Of a stretch of 64,000 nt of DNA, positions 35,490 through 56,064 are shown one piece after another. The notes beneath the pieces were generated by a model. The model was not told the DNA's origin, did no database searches, and worked only from the letters and a program-made list of their open reading frames with translations. Positions within the stretch are counted from its first letter, which is position 1; every line of letters begins with the position of its first letter. Source of the DNA: Candidatus Zixiibacteriota bacterium. GTDB taxonomy: Bacteria; Zixibacteria; MSB-5A5; JAABVY01. A program made the position numbers and the translations under genes. The stretch lies in contig DSEQ01000034.1 in the NCBI GenBank assembly GCA_011056555.1, positions 11 through 64,010 of the forward strand, read 5' to 3'.

Positions 35490-36266
35490 ATGCCATCGGA
35501 TAAGATAAAAATACCGGATTTTAAGAGACTGATAAAGCCATCCGTGAAGGTTCTGAAATATCTCGGGCTGGTATTGGCTGTGCTAATTGTTCTTTTCCTG
35601 CTTTTCGATATCGTCATAATGCCTGCCTACACGCGTCACGGGACAGAGTACCCCCTTCCCAGCATCGTCAACAAGTCCTTTGACGAGGCTGAAAAAATAG
35701 CCGAACGTTATGATTTTGAGATAGTTATACAGGGCCGGCAGGCTTCTCCGAGTATACCGGAAGGGACAGTTCTGTCCCAGGTTCCGGCTCCCGGGACGCA
35801 GATCAAGGAAAACCGCACTGTCAAAGTCATTATTTCTGCCGGGGAGCAAATGGTTGAGGTTCCTGAGCTTGTCAGGTATTCTGTCAGGCAGGCAGAGCTG
35901 CAACTGCCCGAATCCGGGCTGAAAGTAGGAAACTACTACTGGACCGAAACAGATACGCTGGCCAGCGATGTAATTGCCTACACAGTACCGCCTTCAGGTT
36001 CTCTGGTGCCCCGCGGCTCAGGCATCGATCTTTACATAAATCGCGGGCTGGAATCGGACGAGGGCTATATGCCCAAGGTACTGGGAAAACCTCTGGCTGA
36101 AGCCCTGGCCCTTCTGGATTCTCTGGGATTCCCGGAACCTCGGGTGGAATATGTAACCAACCCCTTACTTCTGCCCCAGATAGTTACCTATCAGCATCCA
36201 TCGGCAGGAACAAAGTCCATAATCGATTCGACCAAAATACTTCTGGTTGTACCGGTGGGAGAATGA
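35490..36266 (+). CDS. membrane-anchored PASTA-domain protein (3 PASTA repeats, no kinase domain)
   Basis: 258 aa; short cytoplasmic N-terminus, one TM (LGLVLAVLIVLFLLFDIVIM), three ~65-aa PASTA repeats (VP.L.G....A...L...GL...). Confidence 0.75.
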   Translation: MPSDKIKIPDFKRLIKPSVKVLKYLGLVLAVLIVLFLLFDIVIMPAYTRHGTEYPLPSIVNKSFDEAEKIAERYDFEIVIQGRQASPSIPEGTVLSQVPAPGTQIKENRTVKVIISAGEQMVEVPELVRYSVRQAELQLPESGLKVGNYYWTETDTLASDVIAYTVPPSGSLVPRGSGIDLYINRGLESDEGYMPKVLGKPLAEALALLDSLGFPEPRVEYVTNPLLLPQIVTYQHPSAGTKSIIDSTKILLVVPVGE

Positions 36267-40723: not shown

Positions 40724-40748
40724 AAAAAGCCCGCTCGCGGGCTTTTTT
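40724..40748. terminator. bidirectional rho-independent terminator shared by the convergent rplS operon and the CIS/kinase operon
   Basis: AAAAAGCCCGCtcGCGGGCTTTTTT: A-run/GC stem-loop/T-run symmetric on both strands; the TAA stop of the minus-strand PP2C gene lies inside the T-run. Confidence 0.65.
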
Positions 40749-42105
40749 ATTCCTGTTTGAAATTATCGAGGTCGAGCAGGAGATTGCCGACCCGGAAAGT
40801 CTGGTTCATCCTGGCATACACCAGCCCCTCATCATCGCGCAATTCCAGTATATGATAACCCGGTTCCAGTCCCAGCTGGTCTTTCATAAACTGCGAGACA
40901 GTACCCTGCGGTATCATATCCACATATAAGGTGTGATCGAAGATGGAATCGGGAAAATTATGAAATTTAATGAATACCGTGCCCACAGCCTCGGCTTGAG
41001 CACCGACATTTTCATTATTAGAACCGGTCACCCGGCTCATAAATTCATCCACCGGCGGCCTGACCCCGCCGATATTATAGGCATATGCGAGGTAAGCCAG
41101 GATTGCAATCAATACAATAAATGAAAGCACATACCAGGCAAAGGCGCCCTTGCTTTCGGGTTTGTCCCGATAAACGGGAACCGGTCCTGTTATCTGCTCA
41201 CCGGGAGATTTGCTGTCTTCGGTTTCCTGCCTGGAGGCGAATGCCTTTCGCAGGATATCGTCTTCAATCTTTAGCTCCTGGCTCGTTTCCTCGTCCACAG
41301 TCTGCTGTACCAGATCCTTGGAAAAATCGTCCGGGCTCTTGATATCCAGAACCTTAACTACAGCAACAGTAATATTGTCTTCGCCCCCGCTGGCATTGGC
41401 GCGTTCTATCAGCTCTTTGCAGATTTTGTCGAGGCTGGCATTTTCCCTGGATAGCGTCTGGAGAATATTCGCATCGGAAACAAATCCGCTCAGGCCGTCC
41501 GAGCACAGCAGGTACAGATCGCCATCTGCAATCCGATCCTTGCGGATATCCACTTTGACATTCTCCCTTGTTCCCAGAGCCCGGGTAATCACATTTTTAT
41601 TTACAAAGTTTTCGGACTCTTCCTCTGTAAGCTGATTGCTGCTGATAAGCTCATTGACCCAGGAGTGATCGACAGTCAGCTGCTCCAGATTGCCGTTTCG
41701 CAAACGGTATACCCTGCTGTCGCCGACATGGCAGATAATCACATGATCACCGGCCATCTGCACCGTAACGACAGTGGTACCCATGCCGCGCATCTCTTTA
41801 TTGCGTACCGATTGATTGAAAATCCTGCGGCTGGCCAGCCGAATAGCATGTACAAGTATTCTGCTTTCTTCCCCGAAGCCTTTCTCGAGCTGGAGAGTTT
41901 CCGGTATAGGACCGAAATCAGCGGGGGATGCTACCGCGGCCGCAATGGTTTCAGCCGCGAGCTCAGAGGCCACCTCGCCGGCGGCATGACCGCCCATGCC
42001 GTCGCAAACCACCGCCAGATTTTTTTCCTTGAGGAGTTTATAATTATCCTCATTCAGCTCTCGGACCAATCCCACATCAGTGCGGGCTGCAATTTCTAAT
42101 TTCAC
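40747..42105 (-). CDS. membrane-anchored PP2C-family Ser/Thr phosphatase with C-terminal extracytoplasmic domain
   Basis: 452 aa; PP2C motifs (TDVGLVRELNEDNY; VCDGMGGHAAGEVAS; VGDSRVYRL; CSDGLSGFV; GGEDNITVAVV), then TM (AFAWYVLSFIVLIAILAYLAYAY), then ~110-aa C-terminal domain; GTG start. Confidence 0.85.
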   Translation of the reverse strand: MKLEIAARTDVGLVRELNEDNYKLLKEKNLAVVCDGMGGHAAGEVASELAAETIAAAVASPADFGPIPETLQLEKGFGEESRILVHAIRLASRRIFNQSVRNKEMRGMGTTVVTVQMAGDHVIICHVGDSRVYRLRNGNLEQLTVDHSWVNELISSNQLTEEESENFVNKNVITRALGTRENVKVDIRKDRIADGDLYLLCSDGLSGFVSDANILQTLSRENASLDKICKELIERANASGGEDNITVAVVKVLDIKSPDDFSKDLVQQTVDEETSQELKIEDDILRKAFASRQETEDSKSPGEQITGPVPVYRDKPESKGAFAWYVLSFIVLIAILAYLAYAYNIGGVRPPVDEFMSRVTGSNNENVGAQAEAVGTVFIKFHNFPDSIFDHTLYVDMIPQGTVSQFMKDQLGLEPGYHILELRDDEGLVYARMNQTFRVGNLLLDLDNFKQE

Positions 42106-42111
42106 AAATTC

Positions 42112-43422
42112 CTACTTAAAAATGATAATTAGTACAATAATAATCAGCAATATTCCAATAGCGCCCAGAAGATAAGGCAAATACAAATTTTTTCCAATGC
42201 TTGTAACGGCACCTTTACCGGCATCCGGCGGTGAAAAATCGAAATGGCCTTCCTCGGCCACACGAAAAATCGTGCTCTCCTTAACCGACGATATTTCCAC
42301 GACATCGCCGATATTCACAGGCAGCACTTCATCGGTCGAAATAGTCCGGCCATTGAGCCTGGTACGCATCTGGCTGGCCCTGTCAGATAAATAAAACCGG
42401 CCATCCTTAAACTCTATTTCTGCGTGTTTTCGGGATATACTCTTATCAATCTCGCCTTTACTGTCGCTCCTGATGACTATATCGTTTTGCTTGCGATCCC
42501 GGCCGATGCGGTTTATATCTTTTTTCAGCCTGAATTTTTCCCCTTTCAAGGGCCCGCTGATCGACAGAAGATAAATATCGAGTTCACGTTGGGGTGATAT
42601 CTGCTCGGGCTCTGAGGGCTGTTCCCGGGTAGATGGCAGAATTTTTGTCTTATGCACATCATCACTTTTTCTCTGGCTCTGAGGAGGTTCAGGCGTATCT
42701 GCCGGTTTCGGCACTTCCTTTCGAGGAGGAGGCGCGGGCGGTTCCGGCTCGGTTTTTCTATCTGGCGGTCCTGGTGATTCGGGCTCTGGTTTTGCCTCCG
42801 CGCCTTTCTGCGGAGGTGCAGGCTCGGGCGCAGGTGCGGGAGGTTCCGGTTCCTTTTCGACTTTTTCAGGGGCGGAATCCTCCAGATCAGGATCTATCGT
42901 AATCTCTTCTGTCTTCATATGATGAATATCTTCTCCGGACGACTCTTCAGTAAGCTTTGCAGGCTCGGGAGATTCGGGCTCCGGCGGCTTTGCCGGAACC
43001 TCCGGCGGCTTTTCATCCGGCAGCTCAGGCTTTTTCTCAGCCGGCAGATCTTCCTCTGTCTTGGCCGGGGGCCCCGATTTTTCTTCCGGCTTGAAGTCAG
43101 GTGCTTTTCCTTTCGCCGGCATTTCATCAGGCAGAACATTCAGGATCAGGTAATAGTCCTCGATCCTTATAGTATCGCCGTCCTCGAGCTTCACATCACC
43201 CTCCACCCTTTCTTCTGTAACAAACACAGGAGGCAGGTGAGTCATGAGCTGCAGGTGGAAACCGTCGTCTCTCAAGACCAGCCTGGCCAGTTCGGGGGCA
43301 ATGGAGGGGTCCTCTATCGGCACATCGCATCCAGTTGAACAGCCGATGGTAATTTCATCCTTGTAAGGCAGATTATAGGTCTTGATAATCTCAGGGCCCT
43401 TCTGTACAATTATTTTAGGCAT
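42112..43422 (-). CDS. FHA-domain protein with Pro/Glu-rich repeat linker and C-terminal tail anchor
   Basis: 436 aa; degenerate FHA-like N-terminus (ITIGCSTGCDVPIED..), long PEP/PAP-rich low-complexity region, canonical FHA (RIGRDRKQNDIVIRSD..ISRKHAEIEFKDGRFYLSD..S.NGT), terminal TM (LLGAIGILLIIIVLIIIF). Confidence 0.75.
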   Translation of the reverse strand: MPKIIVQKGPEIIKTYNLPYKDEITIGCSTGCDVPIEDPSIAPELARLVLRDDGFHLQLMTHLPPVFVTEERVEGDVKLEDGDTIRIEDYYLILNVLPDEMPAKGKAPDFKPEEKSGPPAKTEEDLPAEKKPELPDEKPPEVPAKPPEPESPEPAKLTEESSGEDIHHMKTEEITIDPDLEDSAPEKVEKEPEPPAPAPEPAPPQKGAEAKPEPESPGPPDRKTEPEPPAPPPRKEVPKPADTPEPPQSQRKSDDVHKTKILPSTREQPSEPEQISPQRELDIYLLSISGPLKGEKFRLKKDINRIGRDRKQNDIVIRSDSKGEIDKSISRKHAEIEFKDGRFYLSDRASQMRTRLNGRTISTDEVLPVNIGDVVEISSVKESTIFRVAEEGHFDFSPPDAGKGAVTSIGKNLYLPYLLGAIGILLIIIVLIIIFK

Positions 43423-46056
43423 CTACTCCCTCTTCAGCTCTTCCTCAATTTTATATTCATTATTTTCCTTAATGCTCTTGCCGTCATCCCAGCCCTTATA
43501 ACCGTCCTTGTCGGCAATTAGCTTATATTTTCCGGCCTCGAGCTGAACTGCAAGCTGGCCGAATTCATTCGTCGTGCCCAGGTATATTCTCTTTCTATCA
43601 TCTTTTCTTTCGGCAAGAATGTTGACACCCTCCAGCGGCTCATCGCTATCATCATCCTTGAAAACGAAAATGAGCATGGCCTTTTCCATAACCTCCTCGG
43701 GCTCTTCGACCGGCTCTCCCTCATCCTCCTCCTCTCCGACCTTACGCATAACAGCCTTCAACTCCGTCTGATTTACACCGATCACAAAACTGGTATCAAT
43801 ATAATCCCGCTTACTGAGATATATTCTGTGCTCCACACCTGTCAAAAGCAAATTTATCGGCGTCTTGTCGGCCGATTCGGAAAGACGTCCCTCACTTTCA
43901 ATTTTGGTGATTCGCGCTCCAATATCTCCGCCTTTCGGATTGGAGGCTGCAACCGCGGTGACAGCGACCTCGCGATACAATTCATAAAATAGCGAACCCT
44001 GGAAATTCTCGTCGATATCAACCAACCTGACCTTGTCTTCAAATCCGGACTTTACCAGCCTGATTCTGGCTTGACCAAAAGGTATCATGACATTATCGGG
44101 CGTCTGGCCCACAGGTTCATCCTGGTCCTCCAGATAAATATCGGCTCCCTGGGGTTTACTGGAAATTTTTATATTCTTCCGAAATCTCCCGGTGATCTCC
44201 GGAAGTTCATTCTCTTTATTGTAACTATAATCCCAGAGGCCTTCATTATCAGTCTTGAAATCTCCCGAGGAGACATTGAAGCCGGCAAGTCTCAGGGCGC
44301 CTGAAGCCTTTTCATGCTCGAGCCGAATATCAACGCTATCAGTTAAAGGTATCGGAACCAGAGCAGGGGTAACCGCGGGGTAAAGATTGTTATCCACAAA
44401 TATTGATGCTCCCTGCGGGATGGAATTGATACGTGCCTCTCGCTTCAAAACGAAATTAGGAAAGGTAATTTGATCGCCCTCTTTCAGGACGAACTGGGTA
44501 TCAATCGGGCTGGCCTTGTCCATTTCGATACGGAGATTGTACTGTCCTGCGTCGAGCTGATTGATCTGCAACGGAGTTTTTCCCGACTTTTCTCCATTAA
44601 GAAAAACAACCGCACCTTCCGGAACAGAATTTATCCATACCGCATATTCCCCGGAAGGGCCGCTGCTTCCACCTGCGCCCCCGATCAAAGTGCCGATTAT
44701 AAGAAGCAGAATTAAAATTATTATTGCACCGCCGCCATACACCCAGATTCTTTTGTCGGCGCGCTTGAGGGCGGCCAGGGATGACTGAAAGTCGAAAGCG
44801 GGCTTCTTCCTCTTGAATGACGGAACTTCCCTGACTACCGTTTTAGCATCGGCGCTCTCGCTTGAATATATTGATGTTCTGGCTTCGTCTCCTGAGGTGT
44901 CATGGATAACAGTCCGGGCCTCTTCCGACGTACTATCATAGATTACCGTTTTGGCTTCTTCCGGTTCAGCTGCCGGTTCTCTTTTCGGCTTCTGCTCCCC
45001 TGTCTTCCGTTCTTCAGGCGGCCCGGGTTTCGGCCCCACAGGTTCAGGTTCCGGCGGAGTACTCAGGATTTGTGTTTTGATTTTCTGCTGGCTGTTCTGC
45101 CGGGTTGCTTTTTCCTCAGCTTCCACAGGCTCCTTAACATACATGGAATGCACCAATCGTGACAGATCCGAGGTGGGCTCACCCGGAAAATATTTTCGCG
45201 AGAGATGGTACAGGTCGACATACATTTCATTGGCTGACTTATACCTCTCAGACCTGTCTTTCTTCAGGGCCTGACGGATCACATCAGAACAACCCTCGGG
45301 CAGATCGACAGTTTCCAGGGGTGCAAAATCAATTTGCCCCGAGGTAATCTTTTTCATAACCGTGAAATCCGAATCGCCCGAAAAGAGTTCTTCACCGGTG
45401 CACATCTCGTAAAAAACCGAACCAAGCGAGAAAATATCGCTCTGGCGTGTAGCTTCTTTACCCTCCAGCTGCTCGGGAGACATGTAGGCCACCTTACCTT
45501 TGACGAAACCGGTTTGGGTCTTCTGCACTATACGGTTGCGGGCCTTGGCAATGCCGAAATCAATCAGCTTGACCGAGCCCTCCACGGTGAGCATGATATT
45601 CGAGGGCGAGATATCCCTGTGCACGATATTCAATGGCTGCCCGGATTTTCTATCCTTGAGGTTATGCGCATATTCGAGCGCTTTGCAGATTTCGCTAATA
45701 ATGTGCATGGCCATGTTTTTCGGCATGGTCTCGTTGCGATCGTTATAGTAATCGATCACCTCGCGCAGATCGACGCCTTCGATAAACTGCATGATTATAA
45801 AGACGCGATCATCGGGAGTTTTCCTGAGACTGTAAACCTGTACTATATTGGGATGGTTAAGGCGGGCTGTATTGACGGCCTCGTCGATGAACATATCGAC
45901 ATACTGCTTCTCACCCAGCAGAGATTTAACAACTTCCTTTATCGCAACGGGACGATCGAGAGTCAAATCCCAACCGTAATATATAGTGCCGAAACCTCCC
46001 GCTTTGATCTCGCGGATGATTTCATACTGCTCATCTATAATCCTGCGCGCGCTCAT
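43423..46056 (-). CDS. Hanks-type Ser/Thr protein kinase with TM segment and extracytoplasmic PEGA repeats
   Basis: 877 aa; kinase subdomains (GGFGTIY..VAIK; HRDISPSNIML; DFGIAK; SPE), Pro-rich linker, TM (IWVYGGGAIIILILLLIIGTLIGG), then at least 3 PEGA-like repeats (INSVPEGAVVFLNGEKSGKTP; INSIPQGASIFVDN; SSKPQGADIYLEDQ). Confidence 0.9.
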   Translation of the reverse strand: MSARRIIDEQYEIIREIKAGGFGTIYYGWDLTLDRPVAIKEVVKSLLGEKQYVDMFIDEAVNTARLNHPNIVQVYSLRKTPDDRVFIIMQFIEGVDLREVIDYYNDRNETMPKNMAMHIISEICKALEYAHNLKDRKSGQPLNIVHRDISPSNIMLTVEGSVKLIDFGIAKARNRIVQKTQTGFVKGKVAYMSPEQLEGKEATRQSDIFSLGSVFYEMCTGEELFSGDSDFTVMKKITSGQIDFAPLETVDLPEGCSDVIRQALKKDRSERYKSANEMYVDLYHLSRKYFPGEPTSDLSRLVHSMYVKEPVEAEEKATRQNSQQKIKTQILSTPPEPEPVGPKPGPPEERKTGEQKPKREPAAEPEEAKTVIYDSTSEEARTVIHDTSGDEARTSIYSSESADAKTVVREVPSFKRKKPAFDFQSSLAALKRADKRIWVYGGGAIIILILLLIIGTLIGGAGGSSGPSGEYAVWINSVPEGAVVFLNGEKSGKTPLQINQLDAGQYNLRIEMDKASPIDTQFVLKEGDQITFPNFVLKREARINSIPQGASIFVDNNLYPAVTPALVPIPLTDSVDIRLEHEKASGALRLAGFNVSSGDFKTDNEGLWDYSYNKENELPEITGRFRKNIKISSKPQGADIYLEDQDEPVGQTPDNVMIPFGQARIRLVKSGFEDKVRLVDIDENFQGSLFYELYREVAVTAVAASNPKGGDIGARITKIESEGRLSESADKTPINLLLTGVEHRIYLSKRDYIDTSFVIGVNQTELKAVMRKVGEEEDEGEPVEEPEEVMEKAMLIFVFKDDDSDEPLEGVNILAERKDDRKRIYLGTTNEFGQLAVQLEAGKYKLIADKDGYKGWDDGKSIKENNEYKIEEELKRE

Positions 46057-47480
46057 TTTTTCTCCGGCGCCTCCGAAAATCCAAATTTAACCGGATCGGT
46101 GGCAATAATCATCGCCGCCATTATCTTGGGAACATACTCCACCGTCTCATTGTGCAACATGTCATTTTTCACAAGATACCAGAATCTATTTTGCTCGATC
46201 ACATCCATCCTCATCAGGGCATTCCTGATTCTCCCCAGGCCTGTGTTGTAGGATGCCATAGCCAGCATATAAGAGTTATACAAATTATATAATTGTTTAA
46301 TATATTTACAAGCAGCTTCGGTGGATTTTTTCGCATTAACTCGTTCATCCATATCATTATTCACGGTCAGGCCGAAATCTCGTGCGGTTGCCGGCATAAA
46401 CTGCCAGAGCCCGCGGGCGCCGGCGGGGGATGTGGCTGTGCTGTCGTAGCCGGATTCCACGAATGCCAGATAAGCGAACTCTTCGGGCAAACCCGCACCC
46501 CTCAACATGCGCCGCACCATGCCCATATGCATCTCCGACCTTTCCAGCGAGCGTTCAAACCAGCCGCGCAAATTGCCTGTGAACTTATCCACATATTTTA
46601 CGGTATTCTCGACGAATATCAAGGGTATTTCATTCTGCGGATCGCCCAGATCCTTCGAAAGCCTTATCAAGCGGTAGCTGACATATTCCTGCAGGGTCTG
46701 CCGCGCGAGGCTTCTTTTCTCTTCCCATGGTTGATAGACATAACGGTATCCGGCCCCTGCCAAAAGAACGACAAATATGATCGGCAGCAGTACCTTCAGC
46801 AGCCTGGTGAATAGAGGACGGCGGAATTTGGCCCCCTCACCGATTCCAATTTGCGGCCCCTTTTCTCCGATCATGATGCTGTCGCCGAATTTCAAAGCGG
46901 CGGTGGTAATTCTCTCGCCATTTACATAAGTGCCATTGGTAGAATCCAGATCCTTTATGGATATTGTCGGCGGAATATAATTTATTTCGGCATGTATCCG
47001 CGAGACCATGGGCATATCCAGAGTTAGATCGCAGGCTGAATCCCGCCCGATCTCTATTCTACCGGGCAGAAACTCATAAGATTCCCCGCCGTCAACCTTC
47101 AGAAGCAGTTTTTTGGAAACTGCCTGAACCATCTGCGTCCTGTCAGCAGAACTTCTTTTTCGCGGTTTCTCGGATCGCCCGCTTTCACTGAATGTGACTT
47201 CAATCTCCGGACCGCCCTGGCCGAAGCTTACATGATCGCCAGATGATACAAATCCGGAATTATGATGATTGCCGTTTACAAAAGTGCCGTTGGAAGAACC
47301 CAGGTCGGAAAGATAGAGGCCCTCCGCCTTGACAGTGAACCTGCAGTGCTCGTAAGATACTATATCAGAATTAATGGACAGGTCGGCATCCTCCGACCTG
47401 CCAACTAATACACTGGATTGATTAAATTTAAGTCGTTTTCCTGTATTTTCACCGGATATAAATTCAAATGCTATCTCCAA
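46053..47480 (-). CDS. tandem-FHA protein fused through a TM segment to a periplasmic SLT lytic transglycosylase domain
   Basis: 475 aa; two FHA domains (VLVGRSEDADLSI..SYEHCRF..LSDLGSSNGTFVNG; IEIGRDSACDLTL..VSRIHAEI..IKDLDSTNGTYVNG), TM (LLKVLLPIIFVVLLAGAGY), SLT motifs (AFVESGYD...GARGLWQFMPATARDFGL); ATGA overlap with the kinase gene; TTG start. Confidence 0.85.
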   Translation of the reverse strand: MEIAFEFISGENTGKRLKFNQSSVLVGRSEDADLSINSDIVSYEHCRFTVKAEGLYLSDLGSSNGTFVNGNHHNSGFVSSGDHVSFGQGGPEIEVTFSESGRSEKPRKRSSADRTQMVQAVSKKLLLKVDGGESYEFLPGRIEIGRDSACDLTLDMPMVSRIHAEINYIPPTISIKDLDSTNGTYVNGERITTAALKFGDSIMIGEKGPQIGIGEGAKFRRPLFTRLLKVLLPIIFVVLLAGAGYRYVYQPWEEKRSLARQTLQEYVSYRLIRLSKDLGDPQNEIPLIFVENTVKYVDKFTGNLRGWFERSLERSEMHMGMVRRMLRGAGLPEEFAYLAFVESGYDSTATSPAGARGLWQFMPATARDFGLTVNNDMDERVNAKKSTEAACKYIKQLYNLYNSYMLAMASYNTGLGRIRNALMRMDVIEQNRFWYLVKNDMLHNETVEYVPKIMAAMIIATDPVKFGFSEAPEKK

Positions 47481-47490
47481 CTCAATTCAC

Positions 47491-49707
47491 CTATCCAGTC
47501 TTAAAAATTAAGTCGATTTGACCTATAGAAATCACATCGTTATTGATCAGAACCCTTCGAGTTATCCTGTTCTTGTTAACCATCGTGCCATTGGTGGAAC
47601 CCTGGTCGATCAGCTCGTACTTGCCTCCAGAGTATTCGATGGTTGCATGATTGCGCGATACCCCCTCGGAAGGCAGGTGAATGTCATTTGCTTTGTCGGC
47701 TCCGATTTTATTGGTTCCTTTCATAAGGTGAAATTCATGCTGGGGAGCATCGCCGGATTTGACCTCCAGCATGGCTTCCCCTATCTGAGCCTTCTTGCCC
47801 TTCTTCGACGCGGCCACAATTATTATAATGATAATCAGCAGAATAACCACGATAAGGACTATCAGCAGGATCAGGCCGTACTTCTCAAGGAAGCTCTCAC
47901 CTTTTATAGCCACTTCCTCACCGCTGGGTTCGCTGTACTCGTGGCTGCTGGTAATGAGATTGCCGTCCATATCAACATCGACGCTGACACTAATTTCACC
48001 CTCTACAGGAAGGCCGGATACCGCCAGCGCATACTGGCCGCGGATAAGGGCTATCGATCTCCTGAAGAGAAAATAGATCATATCGTCTTTATCAGCAGAG
48101 TAGAAGAAACCGCCGCTGAGATCGGCAATCTTCCTTATCTCCTCCAAAAATTCGGGCGATTTTTCATTGTCATACCCCAGCGTATATATCTGCGGGAGAT
48201 CATGCGACCGCTTATAATCTTCAAGGGTCTTAAAATTGTTGCGGCTCGACTCACCTTTGCTATTAGTGACCACCACAAAGATCGGGTATTTTTCCGCGCC
48301 GGAGGTGTCATAATAATTCAAAGCCTCTAAAACCGCATCATAAAGCGGGGCCTTCTGACCGTTAAACTGGAGATTATTTATTGCCGTCTTCTGCGTCGAA
48401 AAAGATTTTTCCAGAGGCATGGCAAGTTCGATATTATCGGCAAATTTGAAAAAGGCAACCCGATGGCGGGATTCGTCCAGCTTGGCCAGAAATTCTGTGG
48501 TCAGCTTTTCCTTTATTAGATTGATCTCATTCTCTTTCAACCCCACAGTGCCGAGCAGGAAGATAAAGTCAATTTCATCCTCCCGAAACTGTGGATGCGC
48601 CTTCTGGATTTCCAACTCCTGTTCCCCGACCTTGATCCCGGGGAAATTTTCAGCTATCAGCCCGCTGACAATATTTCGGTTATCCTCGAAGACAGACAGC
48701 ACAACCAGATTTTGACTGGGAATCACCCGGTTAATGGTTATATTTTCAGTGGAATCAACATTGGACGATATAACCGCCTTTTTGATGATTGTCTCTTTTA
48801 CTGTTTTTTCGGCCACCAGAGAGGGAAGCTCGGTCAGGGCAAATTTCCAGATTGTCTCATTCTTATTATCGAGAACATAACAGACATCCCGCCCGGCAAC
48901 ATCAACAGATATCGGTTCATCAAGCATACCGCCGCTGAACGGCGCCTCCCATTGACCTGACTCGAAATCTGCGGTGAAAAAGACCACCTTTTCCTTCTTA
49001 TCCAGAACAAAGAGCTCACCGTGCTGGTTGACGCACAGGTCAACCGGCTCCCCGATTTCCTTGCCTCCGAATTGCACCGGAATTTCTATAATCAGCGAGC
49101 CTTCACTATTGAAAACCTGCACTGTCTTTTTCTTCTCATCAAGAACGAAGACCCGTCCCTGATGATCGACATCGACAGCAATTGGATCCTCGAAGCCGGC
49201 CCCCTGCAAAGTACCAAGATCCTGTCCGTCTTCATCGAAAATACGGACATTATCTTTGTCCTTATCGGCAACGTAAACGCGGCCGTCACGGGCAACCGTA
49301 ACCGACATGGGCCGACCGAACGTCTTTTCGCCGCCTATCGTGCCCTGCCGCATACCCTCCTGGGTAAAGCGCGAGAGCTCATCACGGTCGCGATCCACCA
49401 CGTACACCAACCCATCGATGCCGATATCGATATCCTGGGGAACCTCGATGTCGTCATCACCAATTGGAATAGACCTCAAATACTGGCCGTTACCTGAAAA
49501 TACCTGCACAAGATTATTGCGGGCCGAGCCGATATATATTTCACCTCCCGGGCCGACATAGATAGCCTTGACATTGGAGACCTCGCTATCACCTGTCCCG
49601 CCGGGCAGTTTTATACGCGGCAGGCTTTCTACTTTAATTGCAAAGGCATTGGAAACAAGAAACAGTGCGGCAACTATGCCCCATAAAATCAAATTCCTTT
49701 TCGACAT
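47491..49707 (-). CDS. signal-peptide NHL-repeat beta-propeller + vWA-like domain, TM, C-terminal cytoplasmic FHA domain
   Basis: 738 aa; signal peptide; at least 5 NHL-like blades (YVVDRDRD..; RVYVADKDKD..; RVFVLDEKKK..; ELFVLDKKEK..; VCYVLDNKNE..); vWA-like segment (FLLGTVGL..VVVTNSKGESS..IYTLGYD); TM (LILLIVLIVVILLIIIIIIV); FHA (KIGADKANDIHL..VSRNHATIEY..LIDQGSTNGTMVN). Confidence 0.75.
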   Translation of the reverse strand: MSKRNLILWGIVAALFLVSNAFAIKVESLPRIKLPGGTGDSEVSNVKAIYVGPGGEIYIGSARNNLVQVFSGNGQYLRSIPIGDDDIEVPQDIDIGIDGLVYVVDRDRDELSRFTQEGMRQGTIGGEKTFGRPMSVTVARDGRVYVADKDKDNVRIFDEDGQDLGTLQGAGFEDPIAVDVDHQGRVFVLDEKKKTVQVFNSEGSLIIEIPVQFGGKEIGEPVDLCVNQHGELFVLDKKEKVVFFTADFESGQWEAPFSGGMLDEPISVDVAGRDVCYVLDNKNETIWKFALTELPSLVAEKTVKETIIKKAVISSNVDSTENITINRVIPSQNLVVLSVFEDNRNIVSGLIAENFPGIKVGEQELEIQKAHPQFREDEIDFIFLLGTVGLKENEINLIKEKLTTEFLAKLDESRHRVAFFKFADNIELAMPLEKSFSTQKTAINNLQFNGQKAPLYDAVLEALNYYDTSGAEKYPIFVVVTNSKGESSRNNFKTLEDYKRSHDLPQIYTLGYDNEKSPEFLEEIRKIADLSGGFFYSADKDDMIYFLFRRSIALIRGQYALAVSGLPVEGEISVSVDVDMDGNLITSSHEYSEPSGEEVAIKGESFLEKYGLILLIVLIVVILLIIIIIIVAASKKGKKAQIGEAMLEVKSGDAPQHEFHLMKGTNKIGADKANDIHLPSEGVSRNHATIEYSGGKYELIDQGSTNGTMVNKNRITRRVLINNDVISIGQIDLIFKTG

Positions 49708-49719
49708 ATCCCCTCCAGC

Positions 49720-50178
49720 TTAGAGGCACTTGAACATCATCTCGGTCTGTCCGATTTTGATGTGATCGTTATCAATCAACTCCCACTCAGTCTGCGGCTC
49801 GCCGTTAACAAAGGTCTTGTTCTTGGAGCCGAGATCATTGATATAAAACGAACCGCCCTCATAGCGGATGGCGCAATGAGGTGAGGAAAGATAATCATCG
49901 TGTACGACTATATCCTCGTTCTGGGTGGGGCCGATCGTATATTTGCGATCATCCAAACGGTAATCCTGTCCTTTGTAGGTACCGTTGATTATAACCAGCC
50001 AGGCCACGACCGGAAGATCCTGCTGGGTTTGTCCGACTCCGACAACCCTGGTCTTTCCTCTTCCGCCTCGAGCATCCACAACCCGGGTTGCCTGAGATTT
50101 CTTCTTATCTCTCTTAGGCATCTTGGGCACATCCTTTCGTGATAATCTAAAAAATCTTCCGAAGATATTGAATCTCAT
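49720..50178 (-). CDS. small FHA-domain protein
   Basis: 152 aa; basic N-terminus then FHA (YTIGPTQNEDIVVHDDYLSSPHCAIRYEGGSFYINDLGSKNKTFVNG). Confidence 0.8.
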   Translation of the reverse strand: MRFNIFGRFFRLSRKDVPKMPKRDKKKSQATRVVDARGGRGKTRVVGVGQTQQDLPVVAWLVIINGTYKGQDYRLDDRKYTIGPTQNEDIVVHDDYLSSPHCAIRYEGGSFYINDLGSKNKTFVNGEPQTEWELIDNDHIKIGQTEMMFKCL

Positions 50179-50205
50179 CAGATCATCCTATTTGAAATTT
50201 TTGGT

Positions 50206-51747
50206 TTACACGACTGTCTGGTAGAACCAGTATCCAAACATATTTACGTCTCTCTCGGCCGAGATTGCAATCTGTTTGACATTCACCTCTTCCTTCTTGA
50301 TAAACTTGCCATTGATGATGTAAGGCATATTCCGCCAGCGATACTTGCGGTCATTGCCGGTAATCTCCCAAACCCCCACTTTTTCGCCATCGACCTCAAT
50401 CTCAGTCTTAAGCCCGCCATAGGCATAATCGATTCTCCGTATCACCAAGACATCCAGCTCCGGCTTCAGATTCTTGATCTTGAACTGCGCGAAGCCCTCC
50501 CAGTGCAGACGGCCGCGGTCGGAAATCCGGGTGCCGTCAGGGAAGAAGAAATTCTGCTTCTGCCTCAGCTCTTCCTTCACTCCTCCCAGCTTGAACTCAT
50601 GTTCCTTCTCGGAAGCATCATCCAGTATATCTATCTTATCAACTAATTTATAGCGCACATTGTCAACCATAATTTCTTCCGGAAATTCCTTGGGCCAGAT
50701 TTTGATCTCATCCATCGACAGGCGTTCGCCTTTAAATTCCTCCAGCTCGCCCTCGACCTCAGCCCTGATTTCTGCCACCCTGGGCGCCAGGAGCTTTTTC
50801 AATGCTCCGGAGGCCTTGGCCTGGTAGATTATCAGGTTATTCAAATCCTCCGAGGTTATATCGGTTGCCGAGGTCAGATTCAGAAGCGCCTGAAGATTAT
50901 CTTTGTATTCGCCGACCTCTTTGCGCTGTGAGAGGTTGGGGGTATTCTCGAGCTCATTGGAAATCTCTTTCTCCAGATCGACGATTATTTTCAGCAGTTT
51001 AAAGGCGTTACGGTAATCGAGCTTCCCGGCAATACTGACCATCTCGGCAGTAATTGCCGACTGGTAGGCCTCCAGAGAGTACTTTAGATCATAAAGTTTG
51101 TTGAGCTGCATAAAGACCAGCTTCATATCATTGTAGACCGCAAAGATGCGGGAGACCACCTCGGGCGAGAGAATCCATCCGAAGGTACCGGCTATGGGCA
51201 CAAAGCGGGCATCGATTTCACCGGTTTCGGGATGTGACGGATCTGCCGGATTTTTGACATCCTTAAGTTCCTCCTCCAGCCGAACTCTGGCGAGTTCGAT
51301 TCCCTCATCAAGCTCGGGCGGATTGGGAAGAATTTCGACCTTGGCTCTTTCGGCAATGCGCTTATGCCCCTTGTATTGCGGATTAGCCTTGTTGGTGATA
51401 AAATCTACCGGTTCATCATAGTATTTCAGGACAACATAGACAACCATGGGAAGCTTATATTTGGACACATCAATAGCAAGGACCTTCGTTTCCCAGAGCA
51501 TGATATCGTTCCCCTGTCCATCGGTAGCATACCCCGGCGCAACTTCAATCGAAAAATCGCCCTTCTCCCTTGCGGTTACTTTCAGCTCGCCCGAAAAGTT
51601 GAGCACAACTCCCGGCGAATGAAAGAGCTGATTGTGCAGCTTATCCTTCTCCCGGGAATAATCGACAAGCAGGTTAAAATCCTCCTCCGAGGCAAAGAAG
51701 CCGCGGAAAAATGATACCCTTTTATATTCCTTACTCTCCTCGGTCAT
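50206..51747 (-). CDS. uncharacterized CIS-associated protein (513 aa) in the tail-fibre/baseplate-wedge position
   Basis: follows the gpI-like gene with a 17-nt overlap; no recognisable motifs; P2-like order V-W-J-I-(H) suggests a fibre or distal baseplate role. Confidence 0.4.
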   Translation of the reverse strand: MTEESKEYKRVSFFRGFFASEEDFNLLVDYSREKDKLHNQLFHSPGVVLNFSGELKVTAREKGDFSIEVAPGYATDGQGNDIMLWETKVLAIDVSKYKLPMVVYVVLKYYDEPVDFITNKANPQYKGHKRIAERAKVEILPNPPELDEGIELARVRLEEELKDVKNPADPSHPETGEIDARFVPIAGTFGWILSPEVVSRIFAVYNDMKLVFMQLNKLYDLKYSLEAYQSAITAEMVSIAGKLDYRNAFKLLKIIVDLEKEISNELENTPNLSQRKEVGEYKDNLQALLNLTSATDITSEDLNNLIIYQAKASGALKKLLAPRVAEIRAEVEGELEEFKGERLSMDEIKIWPKEFPEEIMVDNVRYKLVDKIDILDDASEKEHEFKLGGVKEELRQKQNFFFPDGTRISDRGRLHWEGFAQFKIKNLKPELDVLVIRRIDYAYGGLKTEIEVDGEKVGVWEITGNDRKYRWRNMPYIINGKFIKKEEVNVKQIAISAERDVNMFGYWFYQTVV

Positions 51748-52627
51748 CTTGTTTCCCTTCCTCTATTTCTTCATGAACATTATCCGTTTCACCAACCCAT
51801 GATTCCACGCCGATCATGGAGGCCACACCGACCTGCATGAAGTCGGCCTCCTCGAGCTCGGGCTCGGCGAAGATCATGTAGTAATTTGTATGCGCGGGTT
51901 TTTCCGCCTGTACAATCGCATGAATTTTGCGAATCATCTCAACCGGCGTATCATCGATTGTCTGCGGAATCCTGACTGTAAAGCAATGCGAACGATCTAT
52001 ATAGCCGATTATAATTGAATCTACTCCAATGGTCGAGGACACCCCCACCTGAAAACCGTTAAAGGGCCAGTAATTCTCAATAATCTCCGGGGTGCTTTCA
52101 GTATAAATTTTCAGATATAATGCCAAGCCCCGCGAGGTTCCCCGCAGCTTATATATCTTTACGATATTGGCAATCAATTCGCGTTTCTTGGCCTCATCCC
52201 AGTTTTCATCGAGAACCAGCGCCAGAACCGATGCCAGATAGGGCAGGAATTTATCCGGGGTATTAAACGGCTCGAAATATGTGTGTATATCCCTGATTGT
52301 ACGGTCGATCGGGATTTGCGGATGTTTCAATAACCACAGGAACCGCTTCAGGAACGAGCCCTCGCGCATATCGTATTGACGGTATATATTCGGCAGGAAG
52401 TTGAGATAGCTTTTGCCCGATATCACCAGTCTGATACCCTCCGCCGGCACAGGCTGATCGGCCTGTGGATTCTGGATAATTATCCGGCCCTCGGGCTCCA
52501 GCGATTCCTCAAACTCGATTGTGCGGATTTTTATGCCATCCAGGCGGCACATCTTCTCCGCTTTTTCAATATCGAGCCCGATAAAATTCGGAACTGTCTT
52601 TTCAGCTACTGCGGCTTCAGTAACCAT
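51731..52627 (-). CDS. phage tail protein I (P2 gpI-like) baseplate component with N-terminal PASTA-like domain
   Basis: 298 aa; N-terminal PASTA-like fold (VPNFIGLDIEKAEKMCRLDGIKI..GRIIIQNPQADQPVPAEGIRLVISG); gpI-family core (FLPYLASVLALVLDENWDEAKKRELIANIVKIYKLRGTSRGLALYL). Confidence 0.7.
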   Translation of the reverse strand: MVTEAAVAEKTVPNFIGLDIEKAEKMCRLDGIKIRTIEFEESLEPEGRIIIQNPQADQPVPAEGIRLVISGKSYLNFLPNIYRQYDMREGSFLKRFLWLLKHPQIPIDRTIRDIHTYFEPFNTPDKFLPYLASVLALVLDENWDEAKKRELIANIVKIYKLRGTSRGLALYLKIYTESTPEIIENYWPFNGFQVGVSSTIGVDSIIIGYIDRSHCFTVRIPQTIDDTPVEMIRKIHAIVQAEKPAHTNYYMIFAEPELEEADFMQVGVASMIGVESWVGETDNVHEEIEEGKQDDRGE

Positions 52628-55600
52628 TTAGTAATCTCTTCTCACCTGATAGCTGTTAACGTCAACAACATAAAACAGCTGGTCCGCTTTGGCCGGCACC
52701 TTATCGACAAACAGCTTGCGCTGTTCATCAAAAATTTCCAGACGGTCTATGTATTCAACTCCGTCAGTATCCTCGACTACACGATACAAATCCGTTTTAA
52801 TAAGCGCCTTTCCGAAAGGCCAGCCTCTGCCGTCGCTCCCTCCCCTGAGGGGATGCAGGTAATTTCTGATATTATTCTCAAGATCGCGTTTAACGCGTTC
52901 CGGGTCGGCGCCGGTGGCCTTGGTCTGGTAGCTGACCTCGAACGAAACCTCCAGATAGGTGGGCCGATTGACGTGCAATTTTGTGGTCAGCAGGCGCCGC
53001 GGCTCCAGATAATCGGTCACCATATTCAAAAGCTGAGTGGTGGGCATAATTTTGGAGCCTTCTTTTTCCTGCGAGGCGGATTCATTGGGAACTATCACCA
53101 AGGTTACTTCGCCCTCGGTGGGGCAGTTGGAGATACAATGCACCCGGGCGATATTCGATGAGGCCCTCTGGGCCAGCCATTCATAATCCTCGGAGGTTAC
53201 TGCACGGAACCTGTTTCTGAATATTTGCGGAGCCCGCAGTTTGGCGTCGGAAACTGATTCCAGATCAGAACCGCCTACAGCCGGGAAATAATTAACCACC
53301 GACTGCACCGAAGGATTGGATCGCCTCAATATTGTTAAAGACTTTGCGCCGACATTGCCCTCGCTCCCTCCACCAGTACGGTAATTGCGGGCAACGATTG
53401 AATTCGAGCCTGACGGCGGACGCATCCCCTTGCGGCCGTCCCCGAATTTGATCCGGCCGGTTATGTGGTCAAGCACATAATGTCTCGAGGTACCATTCGA
53501 ATTGTAGAAATTATCGACTTCATGCCAGCGCACCCATATCTTTGAGGGATTTCCCGTGCTGTCGGCTTCGATTTCAACGGCATCCTCGCCTTCCTCGGCT
53601 TTTATGGTCTCTATCTCTTCCTTATTTGGAGGGGTCAATTCGCGGACATATATCATCTGCCCCTCAAGGACAGGCGGATTTGAGAATTTGAAAACCTGGT
53701 CAGGAGTACCGTCGGATGATCCCAGTACCTCATTTATTATAGTAGAATGATTGCGCGCCATAACGCTGTTGGTCAGAACAGCACGCATCTCCGGCGGCGC
53801 GGCATATCCGCCGTCTCTGAAACGGCAGCGTATCCAGTAGAGCTCATGTCCGAATTTTTCGGTCTTTGAAAATCCCCGGGGGAACTCAAAGCGCACTATT
53901 CCGCTATTCTTGAAGTTATTGGTATTATCATAAGGCAGAAGATCGGCCCAATCCTTGCCGTTAAAATATTCCCACCAGATTTTCTGCTCCACGCGGGTAT
54001 CGCGGAATATTTCCTCTCCGAAATATTTGGTCGTAACCTCATCCATTGGCAGCCTCTGATCCTCTTTCATATTGAAGCAAAGCGCATAGGTCTCCTTGGG
54101 CAGCACCGCTTCAAATCCAAGATAGAGTGAGGGCGAGCGGTCGCGTTCCTCCTCGAAAAGCTGGAAGGGCTTGTATTCCTCGCTCACATTGCTCGAAAAA
54201 TCGCGGTACGTGAAATCGGCATAAGATTTCAGGCTGGACAGGAAAACCGCCTTCTGGTTATACCTGAGGGTCAGAGAACGGATACATGGCGGCCGCAGCG
54301 GATTGTCATCTTTCCAGACCCAGTTTTTACCCACCTGCTCATAATGACCCGCCTGGCCATAATTACCCTTCGTCAAACGGCAGCGAATCCAGAATCCGTC
54401 CAGGCCGTTGACCTGAGTCGGCTTCATGTCCTCGGGACGATCGAATTTTATCTCCCCTGAGTGAGTGAATGCAAGGGTCGAATCAATAAAGTTAAATTTA
54501 CCCGCGGGCCTTGAGACTCCCGACGGCAAAGTTGTCCCGAGCTCGATCCATTTCTTACCGTTGAAGTATTCCCAGATTAGTTCCAGATCGGAGGACGGCA
54601 CCGGATTTTCGACCACAGATGGGTCGGCCAGCCCGACATCGATTATAATCTCCGAATCTTCTTTGCTGAAAATATCGGGAGATGAGAGGTATAACGTGTA
54701 ATCATATTTCGGCTCTTCCGAAAATGGATAAACGCTCTTGGAAAAATCAAGCGGCAGAAAGATTGATCCGGCAATGTTTGAGAATCCAGCGTCGGGATGG
54801 GGCCCGTCCTCAACAATTTTCGCCTCGAGCGAAATAGTGTCCATTTCAGTAACCTCAGGCGAGGCCGGTATTGCAGCCAGGATCGCCTTGAACCAATATG
54901 TCTCCACGCCGTCTATTTCGGTTTTCTCCAGATCTGAAAGCGGGCCGGAAATTTCCAGCAGAGTTTCATTTTCACCCAATGCTTCAGTATAGACCATGCG
55001 GGTCTTCAATTCTTTGAATCGCTTGCCGTTGAAATATTCCATTCGCAGCATGGTCATCAACGCCTTGCCCTCCTCCGAGGCGGCCTTGAACCTCAGGAAA
55101 AGGCTGGCAGATTCCGTGAGCGCGGATAATTTTTCATCCCCCATGAAAATGGCGCGTTCTATCTGCGATACTCCCCCGAATACCGGAAAGCCCTCATCGG
55201 AGGGATTATTTATATATCCGCTGTTGTCCGATATAGCATCCCCTGCAGTCGAGAAAACTCTGGCCAGCTTTACAGGTGAAAGATTTAAATCTTCGGCTGT
55301 TTCAAAAACTACGCTCTCAACCGCCTCTGTCTGGCTGGTGGCAACCTGGGTACCCTTCGGCACTGTGGTGGTCTTCTCCAGACCCTTATTTGGTTTGAAT
55401 GTCAGGTATGTCTCCGCCGGCTGCGGCAGCAGTAATGACATGCCGATAAGATCAAGTAGAGCGACATAGGTTTTATCCGAGACTTTGTTTAGCTTATAGA
55501 TCGTCATCTCGGTGAGCCAGGAAAACAACTCCAGAAGGGTAATTCCCGGGTCTGAGGGATTATGATCTGTCCACTCCGGGCAGTACTTTGGAATCAGCCT

Positions 55601-55663: not shown

Positions 55664-56064
55664 CAGGCCTCACTTTTTTGCAGATAAAATGGATATACCA
55701 AATTAAAAACATTATTCGTGGTTCTAACTTTATAATCAATTGAAATATTTACTATATGCGGTTGTGCCGGATCGGTCAGTGCTTTAACCTCGATATCGAC
55801 AATTCTCGGCTCCCATTTGACCAGCGCCTCCTCCACATGGTAAACCGCCAGGCTTCTTGTATTGGCATTGTTGGGCGCGAAAACCAGGTCATGAATTCCG
55901 CAGCCGAAGTCGGGACGCATTTGCCTCTCGCCAAATGCGGTACCAACAATCAGGATTATCGCTTCCTCGATATCCTCCTCGTAGCGGGACATCGCCACTC
56001 CGCCGCGCTGATTTACAGAAACTGGAAATTTGTATCCTACTCCCAGAAAATTGCGCCGGGGCAT
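55663..56064 (-). CDS. gp25/GPW-like baseplate wedge protein (lysozyme-like fold)
   Basis: 133 aa; FLGVGYKFPV...AIILIVGTAFGERQMRPDFGCGIHDLVFAPNN...EALVKWEPRI, the GPW_gp25 signature. Confidence 0.85.
   Translation of the reverse strand: MPRRNFLGVGYKFPVSVNQRGGVAMSRYEEDIEEAIILIVGTAFGERQMRPDFGCGIHDLVFAPNNANTRSLAVYHVEEALVKWEPRIVDIEVKALTDPAQPHIVNISIDYKVRTTNNVFNLVYPFYLQKSEA

Follow-up and report, generated by a model that had tools for sequence, protein, structure and literature searches.

A putative threonine-phosphorylation module of FHA-domain proteins, kinase and phosphatase at the distal end of a phage-like contractile injection system operon in Zixibacteria

The stretch of DNA analyzed here, called the window below, comprises 64,000 nucleotides of contig DSEQ01000034.1 (assembly GCA_011056555.1) from a Candidatus Zixiibacteriota bacterium. 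Its reverse strand carries the operon of a phage-like contractile injection system (CIS), and directly behind the last structural gene of this operon lie six genes that encode four FHA-domain proteins, a Hanks-type serine/threonine kinase and a PP2C phosphatase (Table 1). On balance, and with some reservation, we favor the view that these six genes form a distal, co-transcribed accessory module of a chromosomal CIS, and that they provide a threonine-phosphorylation switch, similar to that of type VI secretion systems (T6SS), to a machine that lacks TssJLM.

Gene content of the block and of the operon

Domains were assigned with Pfam, transmembrane (TM) segments and the signal peptide by hydropathy, and structure prediction was confined to single chains. 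The block (40747-50178, reverse strand) consists of six head-to-tail open reading frames (ORFs), all at the coordinates given by an initial annotation that had been made from the sequence without database searches. Five of the six products are membrane proteins, the exception being the 152-aa FHA protein. The kinase and the PP2C protein each have a single TM segment, at residues ~435-466 and ~318-348, the latter followed by ~110 more residues, and in the 738-aa and 475-aa proteins TM segments were placed at ~603-640, N-terminal of the FHA domain, and at ~221-250, separating the FHA pair from the SLT domain. The initial annotation had spoken of five FHA-domain proteins, of which Pfam leaves four; its count of at least six FHA domains holds, with six found in total, of which that at the N-terminus of the 436-aa protein is degenerate. 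Its description of all products but the first as membrane proteins (a TM segment or tail anchor in five of six), of the kinase as having a TM segment and PEGA repeats and of the PP2C protein as having a TM segment likewise agrees with Pfam and hydropathy. All FHA domains of the block also match Pfam Yop-YscD_cpl, and GltG is among the NCBIfam matches to the FHA proteins, with the alignments covering the FHA domain only and scoring far under the family cut-offs.

The kinase has a complete set of catalytic motifs (GGFGT, VAIK, HRD, DFG and SPE; Pfam Pkinase 2.7e-45) and is apparently catalytically intact. The metal-binding motifs of the phosphatase are likewise complete (NED, DGMGGH, GDSR, DG and DN), and with 262 bits it passes the cut-off of 230 for the NCBIfam Stp1/IreP type of PP2C. 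In the 475-aa protein, which is 100% identical to a protein of a candidate division Zixibacteria metagenome-assembled genome (MAG), the catalytic Glu342-Ser343 pair of the SLT domain is unchanged in 14 homologues. Judged by their motifs, all three enzymes of the block look active.

The vWA domain proposed in the initial annotation for the 738-aa protein is a more divided case. Pfam gave no vWA match for this protein, and BLASTP of its middle part against a VWA-FHA homologue aligned the FHA part only. Residues 315-737, on the other hand, align to VWA-TM-FHA homologues from a distant clade with an hhalign probability of 100 (E 1.5e-40, 403 columns), and the corresponding region is scored as VWA by Pfam in the homologue from locus L117. 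The assignment thus stands by virtue of profile-profile alignment, Pfam and BLAST being blind to the domain, and the metal ion-dependent adhesion site is degenerate in Zixibacteria, which have LGTVGL where the homologue reads DASGSM.

The gaps before and within the block measure, in gene order, 27, 12, 10, -4 (an ATGA overlap), 0 and 6 nt, so that the start of the kinase gene reaches 4 nt into the end of the preceding gene, across its stop codon. Both the 27-nt distance to the last structural CIS gene and the tight same-strand spacing had been noted in the initial annotation and were measured as stated there. At its opposite end the block meets the convergent rplS-trmD-rimM-rpsP-ffh genes, and the hairpin located there could be a bidirectional terminator and mark the end of the operon. 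It is the only intergenic hairpin of 10 pairs found in the scan, the other 10-pair hit (47402-47377) being located inside the 475-aa gene. Since the same-strand gaps are short, the 27-nt gap is free of a predicted terminator and a hairpin coincides with the PP2C stop, co-transcription of the block with the CIS genes appears likely.

By Pfam the CIS core is complete, comprising sheath, tube, CIS_tube, VgrG-like spike, PAAR, gp25, Baseplate_J, Tail_P2_I and a Pvc16_N cap. The gpJ protein (Baseplate_J, 1011 aa) shows a weak TssF-type match, and the 847-aa and 301-aa proteins belong to no family in Pfam or NCBIfam. The operon runs ~9 kb past the end of the window, where a second sheath (405 aa) and tube, Pvc16_N and DUF6760 are encoded (L009 1947-9976); the same segment also holds two genes of 300 and 309 aa. 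No TssJ, TssL, TssM, TssB, TssC or ClpV was found in the window and the 10 kb beyond its end, so that the absence of TssJLM claimed in the initial annotation holds over this range, and no Afp15-like AAA+ ATPase was found in the window operon or its upstream 10 kb, although one or two AAA+ ATPases are encoded in related loci. The gpI/TssG-like protein is fused to an N-terminal PASTA domain, a fusion also present in distant loci of the clade described below. PASTA domains are normally extracytoplasmic and bind peptidoglycan or muropeptides, and the one on gpI is relevant to a possible contact of the baseplate with peptidoglycan. The lineage of CIS to which this operon belongs is marked by the PASTA-bearing gpI/TssG-like protein together with a Cis13/eBAP3-like protein whose fold appears to be like that of TssK and receptor-binding proteins, here the 513-aa protein.

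Table 1 Features of the window (position in nt; strand - is reverse, a point stands for no strand)
Feature	Position	Strand	Description
2000-aa protein	3831-9833	+	SprA_N (type IX secretion translocon-like)
McsB-type and ClpC-type genes	15891-19426	+	McsB-type protein arginine kinase gene directly 5' of ClpC-type AAA+ gene
258-aa protein	35490-36266	+	three PASTA domains, no kinase or PBP domain; adjoins rpe and ffh
Hairpin AAAAAGCCCGCTCGCGGGCTTTTT	40724-40747	.	perfect 10-bp GC-rich stem with A5/T5 flanks at the PP2C stop, between convergent PP2C and rplS genes; candidate terminator
452-aa protein	40747-42105	-	PP2C/PP2C_2 (Pfam), TM, periplasmic part of ~110 aa without family match
436-aa protein	42112-43422	-	weak/degenerate N-terminal FHA, P/E-rich linker, C-terminal FHA, tail anchor
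877-aa protein	43423-46056	-	Hanks-type Ser/Thr Pkinase, linker, TM, periplasmic PEGA x2, CarboxypepD_reg-like domain
Kinase juxtamembrane linker (residues ~325-410)	44827-45084	-	five [K/R]-T-x-[I/V] motifs: IKTQIL, AKTVIY, ARTVIH, ARTSIY, AKTVVR
475-aa protein	46053-47480	-	FHA x2, TM, periplasmic SLT lytic transglycosylase (Pfam, hydropathy)
738-aa protein	47491-49707	-	Sec-type signal peptide, NHL repeats/propeller, vWA-like middle domain, TM, C-terminal cytoplasmic FHA
Small soluble FHA protein, 152 aa	49720-50178	-	FHA (Pfam), basic N-terminus, no TM segment by hydropathy
Gap between 513-aa gene and first FHA gene	50179-50205	-	27 nt, AGGA ribosome-binding-like sequence, no predicted terminator
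513-aa protein	50206-51747	-	Afp13/Cis13 position, last "structural" CIS gene; no Pfam/NCBIfam family
gpI/TssG-like baseplate protein	51731-52627	-	Tail_P2_I (Pfam), N-terminal PASTA
Upstream CIS genes	52628-63481	-	gpJ, gp25, PAAR, VgrG-like spike, CIS_tube+LysM, 847-aa unknown, tube, sheath, 301-aa unknown (Pfam)
847-aa protein	57781-60324	-	
301-aa protein	62576-63481	-	

FHA genes behind the fibre-like gene in distant loci

The 513-aa protein encoded immediately before the block has no Pfam match, including PF05936 (T6SS_VasE), and no NCBIfam match, and a sequence search of the PDB returned nothing meaningful. Pfam searches with ten of its divergent relatives gave no informative family for the common N-terminal domain, and the N-terminus of one homologue weakly matches NCBIfam CIS13_fam (48.5 bits, cut-off 370). 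In an AlphaFold2 model built from a 17-sequence alignment (confidence score pLDDT 77) the protein divides into a "shoulder" of beta structure, a "neck" of helices and a "head" that is a beta sandwich. The best PDB match found by Foldseek is TssK (5y0e, E 1.6e-5; also the TssK chains in the TssKFG complex), the TM-scores being low because the domains are oriented differently, and a viral fold library returned siphophage receptor-binding proteins. The likeness to TssK is one of fold, because profile-level comparison of the family with two TssK sequences was negative (hhalign probability <=1.5%). Compared by description, the position and fold of the 513-aa protein resemble those of the TssK-like "eBAP3" fibres, which lie behind Tail_P2_I genes in loci of extracellular CIS (eCIS) and have been read as receptor-binding fibres (PMC12923769, Nat Commun 2026). 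The 513-aa protein could therefore face outward as a fibre or serve as an adaptor in the manner of TssK.

The 513-aa gene belongs to a small and specific family, with 215 representatives (clusters at 50% identity) at E <= 1e-30, and was used as a marker in a metagenome scan that yielded 80 loci carrying 35-40%-identical homologues. Six-frame ORFs of the distant loci were searched over up to 10 kb with the domains of the window by single-sequence phmmer. In 54 of 62 informative loci (82 loci overall) the 513-aa homologue is followed, at no more than 3 kb and in the same orientation, by an FHA domain, and in two more the FHA domain follows within 5.5 kb, after an inserted PAAR gene. In four loci (L133, L147, L149 and L153) an opposite-strand PAAR-domain gene was seen to separate the FHA genes from the fibre-like gene. 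Two or more FHA domains are encoded in 30 of the 33 loci that have at least 6 kb of downstream sequence. When the marker genes are clustered, FHA domains are present in 32/36 clusters at 90% identity, 13/17 at 70% and 7/7 at 50%. The chromosomal genes that flank the distant loci vary. In 15 loci four FHA genes are followed by AAA+ ATPase genes, among them one for a double-AAA protein with a winged-helix domain, and since the FHA genes are flanked there by baseplate and ATPase genes, they are placed inside the CIS cluster.

According to the names attached to the homologues, the distant clade belongs mostly to the Myxococcota (Bradymonadales, Myxococcales). One of its sub-lineages has a gene for a canonical FHA/coiled-coil protein and a kinase gene immediately 5' of gp25, and two loci, of which one is from a Bradymonadales MAG, encode a kinase with PEGA domains at a distance of ~3 to 8 kb from their FHA genes. 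The pair of FHA genes behind the distant fibre genes corresponds to the two leading genes of the block, the 152-aa protein being the counterpart of the FHA protein of first rank after the 513-aa homologue. Because FHA genes follow the marker gene in distant loci of other contexts, the block is very probably functionally linked to the CIS and not a chance neighbor of it; the proposal of the initial annotation that block and CIS belong together is borne out by these loci.

In Zixibacteria relatives the arrangement is identical, with block proteins 46-88% identical to those of the window, and within Zixibacteria the block was in every case found together with the CIS. This synteny was rejected as proof of linkage, since the housekeeping neighbors are syntenic too. 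A contig profile search with an FHA-FHA-SLT alignment is dominated, among the matches listed, by generic SLT-only and FHA-only proteins, with no Zixibacteria genome among them; the relatives used from this search are L010, L011, L013, L032, L033 and L039.

All FHA domains were aligned to a common model and the canonical positions (GRSH) were read. Loss of the phosphate-binding Arg, which abolishes canonical binding of phosphothreonine (pThr) by FHA domains, follows the rank of the protein behind the fibre gene throughout the clade: 60/60 of the first, 46/46 of the second and 19/20 of the third FHA proteins lack it. The fourth FHA protein, with an FHA domain and a long coiled coil, and the FHA protein adjoining the kinase show canonical GRSH. 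The FHA set of the window repeats this split. Its 152-aa and 738-aa proteins are Arg-less (GPSH and GASH), both domains of the 475-aa protein are canonical (GRSH..SNGT), and the 436-aa protein has an intact Arg and Ser in its C-terminal domain (GRSH..SMRT) and a degenerate N-terminal one (GCAL). The Arg-less FHA proteins of Myxococcota-type loci (L098 11602-14330, L117 11331-13546) also have a CxxC...CxxC zinc-ribbon just before or after the TM segment, which is missing from the Zixibacteria versions.

About 20 residues N-terminal of the Arg-less FHA domains there is a motif of the form [K/R/G]-T-x-x-hydrophobic. A search of the 45 residues that precede the first FHA domain finds the pattern [KRG]T..[FILMV] in 54 of 57 distinct sequences, where shuffling gives 4.5 on average and 10 at most; for the second FHA domain the figures are 22 of 41 and, after shuffling, 3.2. 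A hydrophobic residue at position pT+3 is the classical ligand preference of FHA domains. In the window the 152-aa protein has ATRVV at T31 and KTRVV at T43, both kept in orthologues of 72-88% identity, the 475-aa protein has a conserved RTQMV between its two FHA domains, and the P/E-rich linker of the 436-aa protein has a conserved KTEEI and KTKIL. The five motifs of the kinase linker are kept in orthologues of 58-59% identity, the linker around them diverging, and the other Thr motifs of the window are likewise conserved while the surrounding linker drifts. The flavor of the motif co-varies between the kinase linker and the FHA proteins of one lineage, being KT-x-I/V in Zixibacteria, while in loci of the L117 type the kinase shows GGT[QA][LMI]L three to five times over and the small FHA protein has QGTAML. 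The motifs of the kinase linker are candidate sites of autophosphorylation and FHA docking, and taken together these features fit a pThr network. Self-inhibition of the small FHA proteins after the manner of GarA/OdhI was set aside, their FHA domains being without the phosphate-binding Arg.

Elsewhere in the window, BamA, OmpH and LpxD identify the host as diderm, and the SprA_N protein is consistent with a host of the FCB group. A McsB-type gene directly before a ClpC-type gene is seen here in a diderm genome; the pairing is best known from Firmicutes. The gene for the triple-PASTA protein, which lacks the domains of a kinase or penicillin-binding protein (PBP), occupies the same place in Zixibacteria relatives.

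A candidate phosphothreonine switch and competing explanations

We consider it probable that a pThr switch encoded by the block controls the CIS, and the following mechanism is proposed. The sequences show that the small FHA protein and the vWA-TM-FHA protein, encoded directly after the fibre gene, have Arg-less FHA domains with a Thr motif ~20 residues upstream, that the membrane kinase has full catalytic motifs and three to five such Thr motifs in its linker, and that the metal motifs of the PP2C are full. Sensing by way of its periplasmic PEGA domains, the kinase would phosphorylate its own Thr motifs and those of the Arg-less FHA proteins, and the PP2C would reverse this. Canonical FHA domains would then read the phosphorylated motifs and in this way assemble or activate a complex; here this role would fall to the FHA pair of the 475-aa protein and to the C-terminal FHA domain of the 436-aa protein, and in Myxococcota to the FHA/coiled-coil protein. 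In the last and least certain step, the Arg-less FHA domains may serve as phospho-independent cytoplasmic docks for the periphery of the baseplate, as in YscD/PrgH of the type III secretion system (T3SS), with the SLT domain opening the peptidoglycan locally and NHL and vWA binding ligands on the envelope or the target. Docking of the CIS to the membrane by the FHA proteins is possible, though we hold it to be somewhat doubtful, and the periplasmic NHL, vWA, SLT and PEGA domains may form a trans-envelope dock that anchors the machine.

A bolder form of this idea, which we put forward tentatively and regard as unlikely at present, is that the lineage represents an independently evolved, cell-anchored "type VI-like" machine, in which bitopic FHA proteins replace TssJLM, the TssK-like Cis13 protein docks on the Arg-less FHA domains, and kinase and PP2C gate firing. 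The replacing set would comprise the vWA-TM-FHA and TM-zinc-ribbon-FHA proteins and, in Zixibacteria, also the FHA-FHA-TM-SLT protein, while the canonical FHA proteins would read the Thr motifs.

The resemblance to the PpkA/PppA/Fha1 pathway of the T6SS, which the initial annotation had drawn as a parallel, goes beyond analogy. Distant full-length homologues of the FHA-FHA-TM-SLT protein occur in a cassette that encodes a small Arg-less FHA protein, FHA-FHA-TM-SLT, vWA-like-TM-FHA, PP2C-TM and a Ser/Thr kinase with TM and PEGA. In locus L003 this five-gene cassette lies 4 kb from TssJ/TssK, and in L006 and L007 the homologous FHA-FHA-SLT gene adjoins TssK/TssL/TssM. The x-TM-FHA proteins of L003 and of an acidobacterial contig (L172) align to the family of the 738-aa protein with a probability of 99.8.

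Several observations weigh against a dedicated CIS switch. On the contig of Ca. Sulfotelmatobacter (Acidobacteriota; L172 9733-16254) the five-gene cassette stands alone, the 10 kb around it being free of CIS and T6SS genes, and two further loci (L004, L005) have a partial cassette, also without CIS or T6SS genes within that distance. The module can therefore function, or at any rate be present, away from such a machine. The cassette is thus a portable, separable unit, which occurs with two kinds of contractile machine and also by itself. The initial annotation had named the same block next to unrelated genes in related genomes as evidence that would speak against it, and such cases were found in part, outside Zixibacteria. 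Six informative loci have no FHA gene downstream of the marker gene, the distant loci are mutually related, so that locus counts overstate the number of independent events, and the Zixibacteria synteny, which reaches into the housekeeping flank including ribosomal genes, is uninformative alone. Among the 82 distant loci at least 12 have a kinase and at least 6 a PP2C, so that the phosphorylation genes are not universally linked to the marker gene. No FHA protein of the window reaches the cut-off for TagH (TIGR03354, 120.25), the best being the 436-aa protein with 63.2 bits and the others scoring 35-58, and the FHA homologues of distant loci are also under it. The head of the 513-aa protein is CBM6/35-like and its N-terminal domain recurs among relatives with varied C-terminal heads; an extracellular mode is suggested by this protein as well as by the PASTA domain of gpI, and the published view of TssK-like eCIS proteins as extracellular fibres (PMC12923769) fits such a mode equally well.

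The chief rival is accordingly an extracellular CIS whose production or release the module controls. The block would sense signals from envelope or prey and gate assembly or release, the 513-aa protein would be a true receptor-binding fibre, the SLT domain would open the sacculus for release, and the module would not serve to anchor the baseplate for firing from inside the cell. We judge this explanation to be unlikely, yet the PASTA domain of gpI and the head of the fibre-like protein suit it well, as do the phage receptor-binding-protein folds matched by the 513-aa protein, the many different heads attached to its N-terminal domain and the publication of TssK-like eBAP3 proteins behind Tail_P2_I as eCIS fibres (PMC12923769). 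The operon, moreover, encodes the eCIS markers Pvc16_N and DUF6760, has LysM on the tube-initiator protein, is devoid of TssJLM genes in the range searched, and is accompanied by an SLT domain fused to FHA readers. That fusion, however, is restricted to Zixibacteria and to the stand-alone or T6SS-linked cassettes, and it is the FHA proteins, not the lytic enzyme, that are conserved throughout the clade. The operon showed no holin or endolysin cassette, released eCIS are not known to include conserved bitopic proteins whose FHA domain is cytoplasmic and whose genes separate those of fibre and ATPase, and the homologous cassette also adjoins genes of the canonical, cell-anchored T6SS.

Mere adjacency is unlikely, with some weight left to it by the acidobacterial contig. 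On this account, which we rate as quite improbable, the block is an independent signaling cassette of the PknB/PstP/FhaA/FhaB type for envelope or peptidoglycan that abuts the CIS operon, or was recently captured at its end, and has no CIS role. The stand-alone and partial cassettes agree with it, as do the best NCBIfam matches (Stk1/PknB-type kinase, Stp1 PP2C and FhaB/FipA), the generic envelope character of SLT, vWA and PEGA domains, and a Zixibacteria neighborhood that is syntenic as a whole, ribosomal genes included. Against this, 54-56 of 62 distant loci, set in other contexts, have the counterparts of the first two block genes behind the fibre gene, FHA genes are placed between baseplate and ATPase genes in 15 loci, and in the window the gaps of -4 to 27 nt are free of a terminator until the PP2C stop. 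The kinase, moreover, has PEGA and no PASTA domains and scores under the PknB cut-off, the FhaB/FipA matches are under theirs, none of rodA, pbpA and ftsW adjoins the block, and two independent lineages have the cassette beside T6SS genes. A third explanation, which appears very unlikely, is an intracellular CIS of the cell-death type known from Streptomyces, in which an envelope-stress signal relayed by the kinase makes the particles fire into the cell's own membrane through FHA proteins acting as CisA analogues. As a precedent, the membrane protein CisA is reported to be needed for the firing of a cytoplasmic CIS (PMC12237407), and the block does encode an envelope-sensing kinase and a phosphatase, next to a Zixibacteria operon with no obvious toxin cargo or ATPase. 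The PAAR/VgrG spike and the fibre-like protein with its lectin-like head suggest an external target instead, predatory Myxococcota and Bradymonadales figure prominently in the clade, and the FHA proteins have no homology to CisA, so that the resemblance is by analogy only.

Relation to known systems

Control of a contractile weapon by a kinase, a PP2C and FHA proteins is known from the T6SS. In the literature searched, what is new is its occurrence with this machine and this set of proteins, and the arrangement of Arg-less FHA domains with Thr motifs; the module as such is previously unreported there. A full-text search found FHA proteins or kinases in connection with CIS only for the T6SS or in unrelated work, many subscription papers lying outside its range, and recent CIS surveys make no mention of FHA proteins and kinases, with zero occurrences of either word in PMC12923769. 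The positioning, regulation and triggering of CIS other than the T6SS is a largely open field, and in each of the solved cases, namely the thylakoid-anchored CIS, Streptomyces CisA and the haloarchaeal anchor, the membrane partner is a different and lineage-specific one. The present finding defines a sizeable lineage, in Zixibacteria and predatory Myxococcota/Bradymonadales, with conserved FHA partners coupled to a Hanks kinase and a PP2C, and it offers targets for mutation in the K/R/G-T-x-x-hydrophobic motifs, the Arg-less versus canonical FHA domains and the kinase. The presence of an FHA/kinase/PP2C/SLT cassette at both canonical T6SS and phage-like CIS loci suggests a portable unit for the post-translational control of contractile weapons. 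If docking were to prove true, one would have to reconsider where "extracellular CIS" ends and "T6SS" begins, and how TssK-like "fibres" are to be read.

With the actinobacterial FhaA/FhaB(FipA)-PstP-PknA/PknB system and GarA/OdhI the block has in common a PP2C of the Stp1/PstP type and a PknB-like kinase domain. In FipA and GarA/OdhI the FHA domain is preceded by a Thr motif that accepts phosphate, and a candidate motif of this kind stands before the FHA domain of the small FHA proteins here. The kinase, however, reaches 265.5 bits against the PknB-type PASTA kinase (NF033483, cut-off 450) and has an ectodomain of PEGA and CarboxypepD_reg domains with no PASTA, and for FhaB/FipA (NF049868, cut-off 125) the best single-domain score is 68.9 bits (152-aa protein) and the sum over the two FHA domains of the 475-aa protein 103.2 bits. 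The neighbors also differ, being CIS genes on one side and rplS/trmD/rimM on the other, with no rodA/pbpA, and unlike GarA the small FHA domains are without the Arg required for self-binding.

The layout of FHA domain, TM segment and periplasmic part in bitopic inner-membrane proteins is the same as in YscD/PrgH of the T3SS and GltG/GltJ of Myxococcus. The FHA fold of YscD lacks the residues for pThr binding and serves as a scaffold. The matches of the block proteins to these families are limited to the FHA domain and stay far under the cut-offs.

Among contractile systems, the eCIS with eBAP3 fibres show the same order of gp25, Baseplate_J and Tail_P2_I genes followed by a protein with a shoulder-like N-terminal domain and a TssK-like fold (PMC12923769). 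The account of these eCIS names no FHA protein or kinase, whereas FHA genes are near-obligatory neighbors of the fibre gene here, and the published distribution stresses Bacillota and Actinobacteriota, in contrast to the Zixibacteria and Myxococcota of the present clade (PMC12923769). Conserved, CIS-encoded sets of membrane partners, absent from released eCIS, are represented by TssJLM of the T6SS-i, the anchor of the T6SS-iv, Streptomyces CisA and haloarchaeal Hbor_38620. The haloarchaeal anchor was proposed from conserved gene linkage, and tagging with green fluorescent protein put it at the cell envelope (PMC11566945). The FHA proteins bear no sequence relation to any of these partners; the candidate set described here differs in consisting of bitopic FHA proteins and in bringing in reversible phosphorylation.

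The closest parallel is the Thr-phosphorylation pathway of the T6SS (PpkA/TagE, PppA/TagG and Fha1/TagH), including the Agrobacterium version, in which PpkA acts with TssL-pThr and Fha, and the Fha1 version of P. aeruginosa. Both join a membrane Hanks kinase, a PP2C and FHA readers to a contractile machine, and a cassette homologous to the block adjoins TssJ/K/L/M in other phyla. PpkA of the T6SS carries a periplasmic vWA domain; in the block the vWA domain resides on a separate FHA protein and not on the kinase, whose ectodomain is formed by PEGA domains. Unlike PppA, the PP2C is membrane-anchored, half of the six FHA domains, which are spread over four proteins, lack the phosphate-binding Arg, and SLT is fused to the FHA readers. 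The machine they accompany is a phage-like CIS with gpJ, gpI, Pvc16_N and a Cis13-like fibre.

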